The position numbers and the translations under genes were made by a program. Source: Rhynchobatus australiae (lineage: Eukaryota). Taken from it: DNA of 64,000 bases. Positions 36,931 through 46,993 of this stretch are shown piece after piece. How positions within the stretch are numbered: position 1 is the first letter of the stretch; each line of letters starts with the position of its first letter. The notes beneath the pieces were generated by a model that was given only the letters and a program-made list of their open reading frames with translations, searched no databases and had not been told where the DNA came from. The stretch covers positions 9,645,524 through 9,709,523 of the forward strand of contig JAUZTB010000094.1 in assembly GCA_034780895.1 (NCBI GenBank). The letters are read 5' to 3'.

Positions 36931-37019
36931 TATTTGACTCTAACATCTGATGTCACACAAAGATCCAATAAACATATTAAATATCTTGAATATTATATTT
37001 TTCATGGGTAAATACTATA

Positions 37020-37930
37020 ACTGTTAATGACTGGGTGTGAGTCCAACCCTCTATGACTGGTAATAACTGGATACATGCCCATTTGCCGATGTGTGTCATA
37101 ATAACAGGACACATGCCAATCCTGTGTGACTGGTAGTACTTGGTACACACCCACCCTTACTGTGACTGGTAATAACTGGTACACACCCATCTCACTGTGA
37201 ATGGTAAGAACTGTACAGGCCCATTCTCCTTTGACAGGTGCACACAGGTACACACAAATCTCACTGTGACTGGTAATAACTGGTAAATGCCCAACTCTCT
37301 CTATGAATGGTAATGACTGGTACACACCCATCCCTTTCTGTGACTGGTAATAACTGGGATCATGCCCATATCACTGTGATTGGTAGTAACTGGTACATGC
37401 CCGTCACTCTCGGACTGGTAATAACTAGGTACATGCAAATCTCACTGTGACTGGAAATAATTGTACACGCCCATCTCTGAGCCACTGATAATAACTGTAC
37501 ACACCCATCTTTCCATGACTGGTACTAACTGGTACCCATTCCTCTCTGTCTCTAGTAATAACTGGGTAAATACCAATCGCTTTGTGACTGGTACTAAGTG
37601 GNNNNNNNNNNNNNNNNNNNNNNNNNNNNNNNNNNNNNNNNNNNNNNNNNNNNNNNNNNNNNNNNACGTCTATCTCTCTGTGACTGACAATAACAGTGTA
37701 CACACCCATCCCTCTGTGACTAGTCATAACAGGGTACACACCAATCTCTCTGTCAGTCTCTGGTATTAATAGGTATATGCCCATTTCTCTGACTGAAAAC
37801 AATAGGTACATGCACAACTCTCTCTGGGACTGGTAGTAACTGGGTACATGCCCATTCCTTTCTGACCTATAATAACTGGTACACACCCATCTATATGGAA
37901 CTGGTAATAACTGTGCGCATGTCCATTTCC
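37020..37930. repeat. Minisatellite, ~36-38 bp unit, more than 20 diverged copies
   Basis: Unit approx. ctctgtgactggtaataactggtacacacccatct, repeated head to tail. Confidence 0.92.
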
Positions 37931-37975
37931 CTGAGTCTGAGCATAAATAGCCTGAATGTGAACTGTTTCCTTGCT

Positions 37976-39032: not shown

Positions 39033-39304
<272 letters not shown>

Positions 39305-39791
39305 TTACAAATCAGAGTGTACTTGATGCACTATTTTTTTCATTTATATAAGTCTGGAAATGACTGATGGTGTCGCTGTTATCATCCCTCTCCTGGTGAT
39401 ATGTTGGCATTGATAATTTCAGGAGTCTGATGATACAACACACAACCAGTCTTTGTAGCTGGGCTGAGATGGCTACTCAGTGTTACAGCAGTGAACTTGT
39501 GAGTAAACCTGGTTAAAATCCACAAAGTTGATTCTTAAATTCTACACATCATTTGTCGAGGCAGCCATTTCACACATAAAGTGTGTTCCCACCCCTATTT
39601 CATTTTACTGAGTTGCTACAGAACAGAGGTACAACTGCAGCTGTTTAGGGCAGCATATATATTGGAACCAGTACATCACCTGAACTTAATTAGCTGACGA
39701 GGACCAGTCTGGGATGCAAGATAGCCCACAAGAAGAAAATCATTCTGGGTTCCCAACCTTGGCACAATAACCCAGAAATAATTGAAAATCA

Positions 39792-40490
39792 CTGACAGAG
39801 CTGTCTGAGGGTCAGCTGGAAGGCTAAGACACAGCCAATATCATCTCCTCAATGAACACTTTTGGAATCAGGCAACTATCCTGTTATACTGTTAGTTACC
39901 ATAAAAGTGTCCAAGGTCATCAAACTTTTATGTGTTTTGGTCCTTCTAGTCAAGGCCTGGGAATAGCTGAAGGTCAAGCTTATTTGTTGATGTAGCCACA
40001 GCACATCAACAAACACGCATTATTCAACAGAGTTAGCCACTCATTACTTTGGCTATGACCAACACCAGCAATGCAACAAAGCATCAGAATTCTACACATC
40101 TGCTGGATTTCCAAGAACTCAAGAGTCAGTGATGAAAGGGATTTTATTCCATCAGAGTTCAGCTGGTGTGCAGCCCCAGCACCGAGTGACGCAGGTGAAC
40201 ACTTGGCTCCTCAGCAACTGTCAAGACATCTTCACTTTAAGGCAATCACCTGTGCCATCTTTACTTGATGTGGAAGGAGGAAAAAAAGGATGGCTCCTGG
40301 GAAACCAAGAGAACTCTCTGCAGCTAAGGTTCATGACATCCATGCACTAATATATACAACAGTGGAGTCACAGGTACAATGAAGGCACTGCTACAAGCCA
40401 GGGTACTTACAGAAAATACTATTTTAAGGGATCGTAAAGTGGTGTTTCAAATATCTTAGCTGATCAGGTGATACCTTATAATATCTCATG
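39792..40490 (+). pseudogene. Decayed PIF/Harbinger (HARBI1-like) DDE transposase
   Basis: Collinear frameshifted motifs: VTIKVS..NFYVFWSF* (~39895-39950), AGFPRTQ (40102), KGFYSIRVQLVC (40136-40171), QVN..SNCQDIFTLRQSPVP, GWLLGN (40288-40305), FMTS, RYNE (40372), KWCFKYLS*SGDTL*Y (~40440-40485); these follow the order of the Harbinger consensus NFYASGSFQ / GFP / KGFHSLNVQLVC / GSxHDxFIL / GWLLGD / LMTP / RYN / KxRFRCLDRSGGxLQY. Confidence 0.8.
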
Positions 40491-40519
40491 AATAACCAAA
40501 AATACTACGTGACTTTGCT

Positions 40520-40850
40520 GTCAGCTTGGCTCAGATGATAACATTCTGTTTTCTGAATCAGAAGATCATGTCTATAAACAGCACTTGTTTATAGCCTATT
40601 CTGGTGGATGCAAAAGATCCATTCAATGAAAAGCATGGAGTTCTGGTTTCTTAGCCAATATTAATTCCAACCAACCAGTTCAAGAGCAGATTAAGTGATC
40701 ATAATTCTTGTTTGCCGCTTGTGCGATCATGCTGTACGCAAAATTGCCTGCCGCATTTGGTTATAAAACAACAGTGAGTCCATCTTAGAAATAATTTATT
40801 AGCAATGAAACAATTGGGGACATGGAAGAGGAGCAACATAAATGCAAGTT
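40520..40850 (+). mobile_element. DeuSINE/SacSINE1-like SINE inserted at the 3' end of the Harbinger transposase relic
   Basis: tRNA-like head cttggctcagatgata, core ggatgcaaaagatcc...ggagttct, tail gctgtacgcaaaattgcctgccgcattt...ataaatgcaagtt. Confidence 0.65.
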
Positions 40851-42032
40851 TCTTTTTCTTGCTCTGCATGGAAGAACAGAATGTCAAAGCCATGGTAATA
40901 CAGCAATCTAAGACGCAGCCACAGAACTAGCTGGGCAGGAAGGAAGCCTGGTGTATAAACATGAATTCAAGATGTCTTTCAGTAAGTACCGGTATTGTTC
41001 CATGTAATAAAAAATTAGCATCCACATATATTAGTGAAGCATCGCTAAACCAGCTGCAGTTGTACTCTCCAGTACTCAAATATCATCTACTCCCAACCAG
41101 AATCCTGGATCATGTTTAACTTTAACTAAAGACAAATAAACACACAGCAGAATGTACAAATTAAATCCAGTGATTTTATTCCAACCATTATGTTATTGTG
41201 AAAATTGTACTTTATGCCTGGAGTTTGTTGGGGTAGAACACCTGGCCTACCTCATCTCCTCCTCATTGATTCCCTCTTGAAAGGAGTACACGTATGGTCT
41301 GGTGGTGAGTTCCATAGTCAGGCTGTTGGAATTGCAGTGGCATAGTGTGCCCTCCATGTGGCATGGACTCCAGAAGCTTGGTCTTGGTCTCAGTCATGTT
41401 TACGACTGCTTCTTATCTACTTTCTGGCATAGCTACTGTTACTCATGTTGAATCAATATGACCCAATCATCTCTTTAACTGCTACCTGCCCATTTGCATT
41501 CTCTCAATGTCCACTAATGTGAGAATAGAATTCAGGCATCTTTAAAATCTGCAAATCCTTTAAGATTGCCTGTATTCAATCTCCATGTTAACTGAAGGTG
41601 GTAAAAGAGCATCTTTAAGGATTGAGCCTCAGATCTCTAAAGTGGTAGTAAGCACATTCATGAGAAATGTCACAAATGTGCCTATAGTCTGCACCCTGGG
41701 GCTACCACTGTAGGTCCATTGGAGTTACCACACTATGTAAAACTCCAGCGTAACCAACCATTCATGCATAACTGCACAGGTCTAGGTAGTGTACTCCTCC
41801 ACAATCCTTTCAAGATTTTGCAATGAATGTTTCCTGTACATAAATAATTCCGGTGGATGATTTGCTCAGACAAGCATGTCTGCATTTAAGCAGATCCTAT
41901 GAGGTCAATATCCTCAGATATTGCATCAGAGCCAGTAACCATGCTGGGCTTTTGCTCAGTAGATGATTAATGCGCCCTCTTGCTCCTCCTCATCCGTGAA
42001 CTGCGCTTACGCATCCGTGAACTGCGACTTAC

Positions 42033-43066
42033 CCTGAAGTTCCTCCTAAACCTCACTATCTATGTCCTTTGAAGTGTGTAGCTGTACTTAGTGTTTGGCA
42101 TAGTGATTGTGATACAAAGTGCTGTGATTGTGGCCCTTCTTGCAGATACTGCTACACTGCTGTTTTTCCATTTCTGTGAAAAGAGAAAATAATGTGTCAT
42201 TCCATGGTATTACCTGCACTGTTACTTAGGTCAGCATGTGCCTGGTTGACAGTTATTTAACAGAACAAAATGATACAACAAAAACATTATAATACTAGCC
42301 ATGAACTCGTTGGGAGCTTCCAGCTTTGTCGTCCCCCACTCCCTCTATACTCTCCCTGTATATTATTTCCAAAGTGTCGCTCTCGAATAGGGTAGGGGGC
42401 TTGAATTGGCTGGGTCCAATGCAGCATTGTTCTCACTGATTGAAGGCCATCTTGTCCTGCAAGTAGAAGAACAGTATTGGTATATTGAATGCACCCAGAG
42501 CACTGACAGTTGCACATGCAGTTGCACAGTTCCTGTGGCGTACGAGATGTTTTCATTGAATGGGTATCACCCTGCTAGATTCACTTCCAAACAGTCATTG
42601 TCTACATCCCCTTTTGGAAATGTTGTATACACAGATTTGCATCAGCACTTCATAACTTATATCTAGATGTCCCCATTCATGCTAACCATTCATTGCCCTT
42701 GTATCTCATGGCAGTGCTGGACAAGTGAACTTCCTCATACCAGTTTTCAGAGAGAAGCAGGAAAGAATGAGAAGTTTGCCAGGGTTGACTTTCTTGCATG
42801 TCCACTTATGGCAGGTGCATATTAATATTATTGACTTACCTTAGCTGATTTCTTGAGATCTCTCATCTTCTTCCTAATATCTTGCCAGGTTCGGCGAGTT
42901 CTGGAAACAGCATTTACATACTCCACGATTTCTTTCCATACCTGCTGAACCAGGTTTCTCTGAGAAGGAGCGGCCCTCCATGCAGTATATGCTCGCTCAC
43001 TTCTTTAATTAAAGCCTTTAGCGCTTTGTTGTCAAAATGGTACTTCCTGTGTCTGGTACACTCCAT
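42033..43066 (-). pseudogene. Decayed spliced Myb/SANT-like (NAIF1/MSANTD-type) Harbinger accessory gene
   Basis: Exon 1 43066-42840: MECTRHRKYHFDNKALKALIKEV..(frameshift)..QVWKEIVEYVNAVSRTRRTWQDIRKKMRDLKKSAK|gtaagt. Exon 2 42456-42300: cttgcag|DKMAFNQ*EQ...FESDTLEIIYRESIEGVGDDKAGSS. Exon 3 from 42173 after ttttcacag. Phases are compatible (0, then 1). Confidence 0.8.
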
Positions 43067-43149
43067 TGTCCGAGGAAAATTGCTGTGGAAATAGCTGCAC
43101 TGGGCTGACACGCGCAAGATCAATGCTTTAAGCCGCTGCTTAGCGCTCA

Positions 43150-43320
43150 ACCTACACCACCAAAAACAGGTTAACTGATCATTCATATCATTTGCTGTTT
43201 GCAAATTTGCTGTCGCATTTTGCAACATAACAACAATCACATCAGTTCAGAAATAATCTGTTGCATCTTTAGCGCTTTTGAAATGTTTCTGCAAGACATG
43301 GTAAAGCACTATACAAACCT
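43150..43320 (+). mobile_element. DeuSINE-like 3' fragment
   Basis: aaaacaggttaactgatcattcatatcatttgctgtttg...agcgcttttgaaatgtttc...gcactata. Confidence 0.55.
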
Positions 43321-43709
43321 CTCTTTAAACAAAATGCCATCATCTTGATTGATGCTGTGCTTTCATTGAATGCTGCATTTTGCGATCATTATAGCGCATT
43401 ATAAAAATTCAGCCAGATAGTGCATTACAACCCTTACAGCTCTTACGAAATCCTCTGCGATCTGCTGTTAAACTTTTATGTGTGCAAAAACAATAATTGC
43501 TTGCCTTTAAACTGCACCTCTAAATGACAAATAGGTACAGCCCTTGACTAGTTTCTGATATATTATGGCGTACTGAAGCTAGTTTTATGAAAATTTCCTT
43601 GCACACTTTAGCAGAATATATATATTACATTTAACAGTACATCTTAAATATCACAACAGTTTTCAAAATTTGTCTTGGATCAGTATCTTGAAAATGTTTA
43701 AGGCACCGC

Positions 43710-44000
43710 AGAATGTGATCCAATAACTTCTATGACCCAGCACTCTATATTATCCAGTTCCTAATATAACCAAGTACTCAATGTGATTCAGTGCTCAATG
43801 GGCTCCAATACCCAACATGCTCCAGTACTCGTGTGATCCAGTGTTCAATAATGACCCAATATACAATGTAATCCAGTTCATTATGTGGCTCAGAGCAAGT
43901 TGAGATCAGGTGCACAATGTGATCCAGTGCACAGTATAATCAAATACACAATGTAAATCAGTACCTCTCAGTTTTGCGAGCTTGACATATTGTGACCTAC
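43710..44000. repeat. Degenerate tandem repeat, ~17-18 bp unit
   Basis: caatgtgatccagt(a/g)c(t/a) recurring. Confidence 0.75.
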
Positions 44001-44009
44001 TATGGCACT

Positions 44010-46600
44010 GTTCCCAATACTATATGTTTTACAGGATTGGTCCCCATTTGTATAAGATACAGGGCTGGCCCTACCTTTCCTTTGGATTCTTCAGGGATGA
44101 ATCCTATTCTGTACATGGTACAGAGTTGCCTTGACTATTTGTACACACTACCAGATTGGTCCTAAATATATAAAATCTTACACTGTACACAGCACCGGAT
44201 TAGTTCTTTTACTGTGTACACTGAAGGACTGGCCCCTATTCTACATGTGTTTAGACTGTTTCCTATACATTTTAAGTTGTTTGCAATATGTAGGTTCCAC
44301 AGGAAATTCCTCTGTACAGTCCATTTTACAGGACAGATATACAGTCCATTCTATAGGACATCTAAAGGTCTACACATCCTACAGGGCTGGTTCTCAAACA
44401 GTACAATCTGCAGGGCTGTTCTAATATAATAAACATCCTAGATGCTGGTACTATACAGGACTGGCTTCTTTATATTCTGTGCATATGTTCATACCATGGG
44501 TGATCTCTATACTGTACATATTAGAGGACTGGAGCCTATACATTCTGCGAGACTGGTCTCTATGAGACATACCTACAATACTGGTTCAGGACTGGTCACT
44601 ATACTGTGCATCAACAAGAAAGGTGCCCAGAATGCACATTCTTTGGGGCTGGACTCTGTAATGTAAATACTGCAAGCCTGGTCTTTATATATTAGAGTCT
44701 ATATGACTGCTCACAAGTTTTGTGCATTCTATGGGTCTTATCCCTGCACTGTGCATACTATGGACCCATTCCCCATGCTGTCAATTCTGCAGGGCTAGCC
44801 TCTATACTGCTCATGCTACAGAATTGGTCCCTACACTGCACATTCTGTACTGTGTACCTTTCAGGGCTGGTCCCTAGACTTTACATATTACAAAACTGGT
44901 CCATATACTATACATCTTATGGGGCTAGTCTCTGTATTGTACATGCAATTCTGGTCCCATACTGTACATCGTACTGTGTCGGTGTTTATCCTGTACATAC
45001 CATGGAATTTGTCTCTGTGCTGCATATTCTAATCTACAGGGCCTGTCTACATTCTGGACATTCTGGAGGATTAGTCTCCAGACTATATATTTTACAGACC
45101 TAATTTCCATACTGTTTATTCCACAATCTTGGTCTATAAACAGTACTTTTAACATGACCAGTTCCTATTATCTACATTCTATGAGGCCAGTCTTTATATT
45201 TTGCATACTGCAGAATTGCTTCCTTTACTATATATAACACACACCTGATCTCTGTACTATAAATGCTAATGATTGGTCCCTAAACTACACATTATGTACA
45301 CATTATACAGCAGGGATAATGTATATTATTCAGTTCTGATCCCTACACTTTATATCATACCCGGCTGGTTACTATATAGTACATACTGCAGAACTAATCC
45401 TTATGCTGGTCATTGTGCATGGCTGGTCGCTTTACTATACAACATAACGGTCCCAACACCATATGTTCAAAAAAGTTGTTCTCTATACTGTACTTGCTAC
45501 AGGTCTGGTCCCTATACTGCATCTTCTGTGGGACTCATCTCTGTAGGGACACGCTACAGATCTGGTTCCTACATTGTATATTCTACAAGGCTGGTTTCTA
45601 CACTACATATTGCAAGACTAGTCCCTAAGTCACACATTTTACATGGCCAGTCCTTCTGCTATACATTATAAAGGTGATGTCCCTGTACAATACATTCTAA
45701 GGCACTGGTCTCTGTAATGTACAGACAAGTCCATTCACTATACTGTACATATTACAGTGTAGGTCTCTGTACTGAACTTACTACAGGACTGGTCTCCATA
45801 ATGAATATTTTATGGGGCTCATCTCTACATTGTTCATACTATAGGCCTACAGGATTGGTACTTGTACAGAACATACTTCAGCACCAATCTCCATAATGCA
45901 CTTTCAACATGGCTGGTCCATCTAATGTATGTTATAAAGGACTTGTTTCTGTACCATATATTCTTAGAGTCTGATCATCCCTTTACTGCACATTCTACAG
46001 AATAGATCTATGTGCTGTACTTAATATAGTCCTGGTCCCTATACTAAACATGCTATGGTGCTTATCCCTATACTGTACAATTTATGATGCTGGGCTCTAT
46101 ACTGTAAATTTTACAGGACTTGTCTCTGTACTATGTATCCTACAGGCCTGGTCTCTATACGGCAATTTTGAAAGACTTTATCATCTTACACTCTATAGTT
46201 CTGGTCTATAAACAGTTCGTTCTGCAGAAATGAGTCCCTTTTCTGTATATTCTACTAAGCTGCGTTTTGTACTGTTCATACTACAAGACTGGTCTGTATG
46301 ATGTATGTTTTACAATATTGCTCCTTGTACTGTACATTTTATAGGTCTACATGTACATGTAAGACACCCTATTCTACAGACATTATCTCTATCCTGTACA
46401 TACTGCAGGACTGATCCCTGCACTATACACTCTGTCTCACTATATGACCCTGATACCATACATTCTATAGGCATGGCCTCTGTACTGAAAACTGCACAGG
46501 ATAGGCTTCTATATACTCTACAGAGCAGGTTCTTCTCATGTACTTACTATGGGACTGGTCCCTATACTGCATTTTCTATGGCCCTGTGTTCTCTATATCA
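44010..46600. repeat. Large degenerate minisatellite, ~30 bp unit
   Basis: Unit approx. ggactggtc(c/t)ctatactgtacat(a/t)ctaca over ~2.6 kb. Confidence 0.9.
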
Positions 46601-46885
46601 TTTGGATAGTCTCTCCTTTTTAACATTACTGAATGTCTTGTCATTTTACAGTATATATTATTTCATGCTTCATTTTGTTTTTATAATTAATTAGTGGGTG
46701 ATGAATTGAGCCAAAGATGCTCTGGATCTTTCGAGTATGGACATTGTTGGATTTGATTAGTTTTGACTATCACTGAGAGCACAACACAACCCAACATTAA
46801 GTGAATCATTTTTCTCAGTGAAGTTGGGACTAACTACACAGAAGGTGAAAGGAAGCAGTTTTATGTAATGTTGTGCTATACTTAC

Positions 46886-46993
46886 AGAAGGACCAGGGAG
46901 ACCTGGGAAACCTCTTTCTCCACGCTGACCAGGAAGACCTACAATACCACGCTGACCAGACAGACCTTGTGGACCTGAAGGACCATCAGGACC
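46886..46993 (-). CDS. COL2A1: COL2A1 exon 43 equivalent (collagenase site)
   Basis: AG/GT, 108 bp; [36 protein letters not shown]. Confidence 0.96.

Follow-up and report, generated by a model that had tools for sequence, protein, structure and literature searches.

Two decayed genes face each other on opposite strands within an intron of the collagen gene COL2A1 in Rhynchobatus australiae. They lie in a stretch of 64,000 nucleotides (contig JAUZTB010000094.1 of assembly GCA_034780895.1, positions 9,645,524 to 9,709,523), which is called the window here. The gene on the plus strand is a transposase gene of the Harbinger type and that on the minus strand is a Myb/SANT gene. The two are very probably the remains of one dead DNA transposon that carried both genes in convergent orientation. 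An earlier note, made from the letters of the window alone, had proposed one formerly autonomous two-gene element at this place. This proposal is now supported, since both genes are real, convergent and decayed and the halves are paired in other copies. The parts of the fossil are as follows.

39661..40512, plus strand: decayed Harbinger transposase from the N-terminus to residue ~325 (119 identities over 310 aligned codons to protein P0001)
40870..40988, plus strand: end of the transposase gene beyond an inserted repeat, with the C-terminal tail and the stop (85 of 116 aligned bases to locus L056, 4763-4895)
41131..41341, no strand: non-coding stretch between the convergent genes (65% to L056, 5123-5347; 0 of 300 controls)
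41501..42173, minus strand: Myb exon 3, much decayed, for the helical C-terminal part (41949-41605 scores 56; best of 102 controls, 44)
42300..42456, minus strand: Myb exon 2 with one in-frame stop (score 57; best of 192 controls, 30)
42840..43066, minus strand: Myb exon 1 with the Myb/SANT domain, one frameshift and an intact GT donor (score 141; best of 192 controls, 41)

Transposase gene

The six transposase motifs quoted in the earlier note were all located on the plus strand, collinear and in shifting frames, between 39924 and 40470. The location on this strand is correct. The limits given for the gene, 39792-40490, were too short, and it is now placed from about 39661 to about 40988. The whole gene contains 13 frameshifts and 6 stops, about 19 codons are deleted in the region of the first catalytic Asp, and the GD of the transposase reads GN. 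Frameshift-aware alignment was performed with proteins that carry DDE_Tnp_4. The window scored 147 against four intact transposase-like open reading frames (ORFs) of the same genome, with a maximum of 33 in 17 controls, and 302 against the closest transposase family, with a maximum of 63 in 22 controls. The protein-level scores of the head and of the tail alone are not significant, each being reached by 2 of 98 controls. At the DNA level, the N-terminal piece scored above 300 of 300 genomic controls against L056, and the score of the C-terminal piece against the same locus was equalled by 0 of 300.

Myb/SANT gene

The start codon at 43066 on the minus strand and the orientation towards the transposase were borne out. 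A match to Myb_DNA-bind_5 (PF13873) was obtained at 42831-43001 on the minus strand with E=1.6e-8 and 34.8 bits against a cut-off of 21.7, and it is one of 14 such matches in the genome. The gene consists of three exons, and its structure is like that of an intact gene at another locus, L058. The donor of exon 2 is likely mutated. The AG acceptor of exon 3 at 42174 is intact, the exon matches the DNA of L058 at 60%, and its 3' end is not defined. Against the DNA of L056, intron 1 together with exon 1 scored above 300 of 300 genomic controls, while the score of exon 1 alone was equalled by 3 of 300. Six of the eight differences between the Myb exons of the window and those of related species are non-synonymous. 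Therefore, the Myb coding sequence is dead. When the fossil Myb fragment was used as the query for homologues, two candidates were returned, neither of them significant, which is weak evidence. The fossil Myb gene and COL2A1 lie on the same strand. The donor at 42840 is intact and in phase 0, and splicing from it to COL2A1 exon 44 (39280) would be in phase.

Paired copies in the genome

A search of the genome with the transposase gave at least 110 matches, mostly with stops, out of 4793 first-look candidates. Decayed Harbinger transposases are thus abundant in this genome (over 100). The earlier note had expected the two halves to occur together elsewhere if they belonged to one element, and the convergent pair is present at three further loci. 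L056 contains an intact transposase and a Myb remnant detected at the DNA level. L101 contains a transposase of the window's family and a Myb gene, both decayed. At L064 both genes are also decayed, and the transposase belongs to the family of another ORF, L016. The non-coding stretch at 41131-41341 matches L101 as well, more weakly (1 of 300 controls reaches the score). Around the decayed transposases, the other 13 of 14 ten-kb loci had no convergent Myb exon clearly above background. When 31 fossils were assigned to families, two clear cases and one tie fell to the family of the window.

It could be supposed that the transposase and the Myb gene are two separate insertions that came to face each other by chance. 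No termini enclose both genes, and the Myb gene is linked to the family more weakly than the transposase. Against this, L056 is collinear with the window from the transposase through the intergenic region to Myb intron 1, and L101 is likewise, more weakly. A chance arrangement is therefore considered highly improbable. In gene content (a DDE_Tnp_4-type transposase with a Myb/SANT gene) and in having dispersed copies, the single two-gene element agrees with PIF/Harbinger (PHIS) transposons. The open frames and intact catalytic residues of an active element have been lost from the window fossil.

Relationship to the probable host gene L019

The intact transposase-like ORF at L056, named L019, has 378 aa. 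Its matches at the level of orthologues are 88% in sawfish, 81% in catshark and 72% in carpet sharks (the last value lowered by a query gap and a shorter isoform), and the catshark orthologue belongs to one 90% cluster that contains four shark species. The genes of this 2.2-Gb genome are closest to ray orthologues. Of 49 proteins compared with the fossil transposase, L019 and its orthologues gave scores of 320, 299, 293 and 271, and none of the remaining 45 gave more than 200. The description of the fossil as HARBI1-like is loosely true. Mammalian HARBI1 (P0064) scored only 80 and ranks 47 of the 49. In the same scoring the L064 fossil prefers L016. The trees group the window fossil with the L019 clade with modest support, in one tree of 96/69, and in a second tree with 84/78 inside a clade of 98/99. 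Conserved relatives of the fossil were found only in sharks and rays. From these alignments, it is likely that sharks and rays kept one transposase copy of the fossil's family as the host gene L019/L056. As L019 occurs in both sharks and rays, the activity of the family predates their split.

A Ser is present in 7 of 7 L019 orthologues at a position that Asp occupies in 35 of the 53 motif-matched homologues. Both fossils, in the window and at L101, retain the Asp. This is expected for transposon copies and not for duplicates of a host gene. The first catalytic Asp is also gone in two of the six L019 orthologues shown. These losses suggest that catalysis is dispensable in the L019 orthologues.

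The alternative that the fossil arose as a pseudogene by duplication of the L056 host locus, and not by transposition, was weighed with the same data. The collinear DNA similarity to L056 spans coding and non-coding parts, and in one tree the fossil and the L019 orthologues share an open fork. On the other hand, no similarity between the window and L056 was seen upstream of the transposase. The Myb gene of the window is far better preserved than the remnant at L056, which has no protein-level signal. The Asp kept in the fossil is replaced in all seven L019 orthologues, and L101 exists as a further sister copy. The pseudogene origin is largely refuted and has very little probability left beside a transposed copy.

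Element ends and inserted repeats

Two repeats interrupt the fossil, and a possible right end lies beyond the start of the Myb gene.

40513..40850, plus strand: near full-length short interspersed element (SINE) with a tRNA-like head, within the 3' end of the transposase; matches to L002, L003 and L005
43146..43325, plus strand: second SINE of this family, truncated at its 5' end and 72% like the copy at 40513 over 71 nt; matches also to L002, L003, L004, L006 and L007
43326..43414, no strand: possible right subterminal region and terminus, unproven; its position resembles the GGGC-type end of L064, as seen by eye

Repeat contigs stack at 40525-40564 in 4 of 4 runs. The claim of two DeuSINE insertions holds in that both inserts are repeated elements; they are putative DeuSINEs. 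Rfam gave nothing on the window beyond one chance-level match.

The earlier note had named aaaaattcagcc at 43403-43414 as a possible right terminus. The letters are present, and the role as a terminus gained no independent support. No left partner and no family copies of the region 43326-43414 were found. An alignment of the left end with L056 and L101 gave no shared terminus. When the right end was compared with 13 left and 5 right ends, the best p was 0.04, uncorrected, and no terminus was gained. A pattern search of the genome for the right end matched only the window itself. A shorter pattern had 15 matches, which have nothing downstream in common with the window and no consensus flank. 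The apparent excess of 15 over 0 was rejected because the reversed control contains CpG, and an estimated 16 or so matches are expected by chance. An 18-nt inverted repeat at 39629/41048 was attributed to chance, and no counterpart was noticed on reading L056. Searches of the genome with the DNA of the element returned SINE copies only, or the window itself.

The hexamer TAGCGC occurs four times in one orientation at 43019-43397. One of these sites falls within the SINE and another on its edge, and they may be remnant binding sites.

Several results weigh against a Harbinger-type transposon of the L019 family at this locus. No pair of terminal inverted repeats (TIRs) and no target-site duplication was found with a repeat finder, end alignments or pattern searches, and the data thus demonstrate neither the ends of the element nor a transposition; decay can explain the lack of TIRs. 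There is no close DNA copy of the window transposase in the genome, where the one match was the window itself. DDE_Tnp_4 gave no direct match to the window in three read-through frames and three plus-strand ORFs, and the window transposase is absent from the 66 matches of this model in the genome. The DDE_Tnp_4 check proposed in the earlier note was thus significant by frameshift-aware alignment to DDE_Tnp_4 proteins, while the Pfam model was silent on the broken frames. In the tree the fossil transposase is a long branch, and the approximately unbiased test does not reject a place for it outside the clade of L019 and P0005 (p=0.31).

Kinship of the Myb gene

The fossil Myb gene appears closest to two conserved shark and ray Myb genes on other contigs, L058 and L060, less firmly than the transposase is linked to L019. 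With exons 1 and 2, the top 12 of 161 Myb-like proteins all belong to the L058/L060 family (scores 178-208; best outsider 176). With exon 3, this family accounts for 8 of the top 10 among 90 proteins. For exon 3 of L101, which has the same transposase family, the best four of 90 proteins are also from the L058/L060 family. The exon structure of the fossil is identical to that of the L058 gene. Exon 3 of L058 has orthologues of 78-88% in sharks and rays, together with a paralogue group of 50-56%. As judged by protein identity, L019 and L058/L060 are each conserved across distant species.

From these similarities it may be proposed that the family of the window also gave sharks and rays a co-domesticated pair, namely the transposase gene L019 and the Myb genes L058/L060, and there is precedent for co-domestication in PMC9710019 and PMC5339849. 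Several points stand against the proposal, and we hold it to be possible at somewhat worse than even odds. The Myb tree leaves the link open, since P0130, a chimaera protein, is grouped with the fossil (83/84), and the two are placed next to the L058/L060 clade in an open fork. The set of Myb-like proteins was collected with a family member as the query, and the score margins of L058/L060 over other Myb proteins are small. The L064 fossil outscores the window against exon 3 of the L058 family, yet it prefers other proteins. In addition, exon 3 of L060 may be frameshifted in this genome, as the stretch L060:3765-4449 aligns in two frames with its orthologue from sharks. Next to L058 and L060 no decayed transposase was detected, where half of L147 consists of N. 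P0130 is an elephant-shark Myb-like protein (LOC103184966), though Harbingers were reported as undetected in that species.

Host intron and related species

The collagen exons of the window lie on the minus strand, and the fossil is enclosed by two of them.

39173..39280, minus strand: COL2A1 exon 44, the downstream edge of the host intron (exon number in the 54-exon numbering)
46886..46993, minus strand: COL2A1 exon 43, the upstream edge of the host intron

The exon at 46886-46993 is alike to collagen II alpha-1 in 34 of 36 residues. The host intron, 39281-46885, is presumably intron 43, with exons counted back from the last under the 54-exon numbering. The location in COL2A1 is borne out by this match, and that in intron 43 by the exon count under this numbering. 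Collagen introns also contain degenerate tandem repeats at 44000-46500 and 37000-37950, whose units measure ~29 bp and ~35 bp.

Contigs of related organisms contain the locus, and in organism C a single contig spans all of it, with 184 substitutions over 5401 bases. RNA data were not among the records listed as carrying the locus. A 21-bp duplication at 41991 is present only in the species of the window among the four runs compared. By the age of the family and from the close relatives examined, this insertion is likely of similar age to the family, from before the split of sharks and rays.

The Myb half changes slowly. In organism C, 22 substitutions were counted in 1192 bases of 41853-43066 against 162 in ~4110 elsewhere (scan-corrected p=0.007). 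Among the contig pieces listed, the counts were 20 in 1134 against 89 in 2277 for organism D, and 8 in 1166 against 29 in 1921 for organism B. The rate is about half that of the rest in these three comparisons. The ratio of observed to expected CpG is 0.63-0.69 over Myb exon 1 and its upstream part (0.69 for 42841-43145), the highest of 229 tiles with a median of 0.14. The TAGCGC cluster at 43019-43397 holds four of the five matches that the whole window has on both strands. These features would fit a reuse of the Myb half as a non-coding regulatory element of COL2A1, an enhancer or internal promoter, which would be under selection and no longer coding. This reuse is rather unlikely. Local variation in mutation rate or gene trees could account for the slow Myb half. 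A CpG ratio of 0.65 is reached by 15 of 480 tiles in other loci, and another fossil, L140, also retains CpGs (0.50). Organism B has three private changes within the core that is unchanged in C. SOX-like heptamers are not clearly enriched in the Myb half (5 in 1.2 kb against 2.5 per kb). The reuse is a hint and a lead only, because the slow region was picked after B and D had been seen, the species share branches, and the CpG-rich end at 43127-43566 is among the fastest-changing pieces in D.

Further Harbinger-related loci

Four more intact ORFs similar to Harbinger transposases are present in the genome (L009/L057, L011, L016/L069 and L013/L070), and by their sequences they are likely more domesticated genes. 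L009 and L011 have no first catalytic Asp, and L011 joins ray and shark proteins in a starred clade. A broken copy at L111:3063-4345 (G000:C76) groups with the shark-conserved gene P0005/P0006 (100/100) and is possibly a domesticated transposase lost in this lineage. More Myb/SANT genes with an open first exon were seen at L059 and L062 (both G000:C75), L061, L063, L065, L066 and L072, and L059 resembles the P0126 cluster, which is conserved in rays. A sawshark protein record, P0018, joins a Myb domain to a Harbinger transposase. This fusion is probably an artefact of gene modelling on an element that has its two genes on the same strand.

Discussion

Vertebrate PIF/Harbinger (PHIS) elements, such as Harbinger3_DR of zebrafish, and the NuwaI group are described in PMC9179366, PMC4482050 and PMC9710019. 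Like the fossil, they carry a DDE transposase and a Myb/SANT gene in one element. In contrast to an autonomous PIF/Harbinger, both genes of the window are dead. A 3-bp target-site duplication separates PIF/Harbinger from NuwaI/NuwaII. Since the ends and the target site of the fossil are not recoverable, it is not separable between these groups; subgroups are distinguished by target site (PMC4482050). The inserted SINEs are putative DeuSINEs and would be, like SacSINE1, repeats of a cartilaginous fish with a tRNA-like head and a shared central body. SacSINE1 of dogfish is entered in a table of PMC3747384 as a tRNA-derived DeuSINE.

The history of the locus would be as follows. The element would have entered COL2A1 intron 43 by cut-and-paste, likely before sharks and rays split. 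In the living element, the Myb protein would have bound the element ends and carried the DDE transposase into the nucleus, where the transposase would have excised and reinserted the element. Later, the coding sequence would have decayed neutrally and two SINEs would have inserted. Binding of the ends by the Myb protein, nuclear import of the transposase and cut-and-paste are described for known Harbingers in PMC9179366, PMC9392472 and PMC9710019, and for the family of the window we infer this mechanism by analogy.

HARBI1/NAIF1 and MSANTD1-4 are host genes derived from the two Harbinger ORFs (PMC9392472), and L019 and L058/L060 look like further cases. Unlike that pair, the fossil does not come from the HARBI1 donor family, as mammalian HARBI1 lies outside the elasmobranch clade as well as at rank 47 of 49. 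The pairs DPLG7/DPM7, APLG/APM, HDP1/HDP2 and ALP1/ALP2 of insects and plants are transposase-derived and Myb-derived genes of one family (PMC9710019 and PMC5339849), as is proposed for L019 with L058/L060. Those pairs are tied by adjacency or by binding that was shown, whereas L019 and L058/L060 are on different contigs and are tied only via dead sister copies. [quoted passage not shown] Tentatively, and with slightly less assurance still, the window and L101 may preserve the ancestral pairing of a co-domesticated L019 with duplicated L058/L060, genes that would now lie on separate chromosomes, that is, of a lineage-specific second complex of the HARBI1/NAIF1 type, while the Myb half may also regulate COL2A1.

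A literature search, with subscription papers, Repbase and Dfam outside its reach, found no paper on this element or on elasmobranch-specific genes derived from Harbinger. As a fossil the element is ordinary, and its one unusual feature, of moderate interest, is that it points to host-gene relatives. In PMC9179366, Harbingers were not detected in elephant shark and the examination of other cartilaginous fish was recommended. For this genome the point is answered, as a cartilaginous fish beyond elephant shark hosted Harbingers abundantly. Current annotation of proteins of the L019 and L058/L060 types goes no further than 'putative nuclease HARBI1' and 'uncharacterized'. If the family link is true, the fossil names a testable elasmobranch-only pair of transposon-derived proteins, and dead copies can be used to match domesticated partners that are unlinked. 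A regulatory role in COL2A1, if true, would be of separate interest, since this is the main cartilage collagen gene of a cartilaginous fish.

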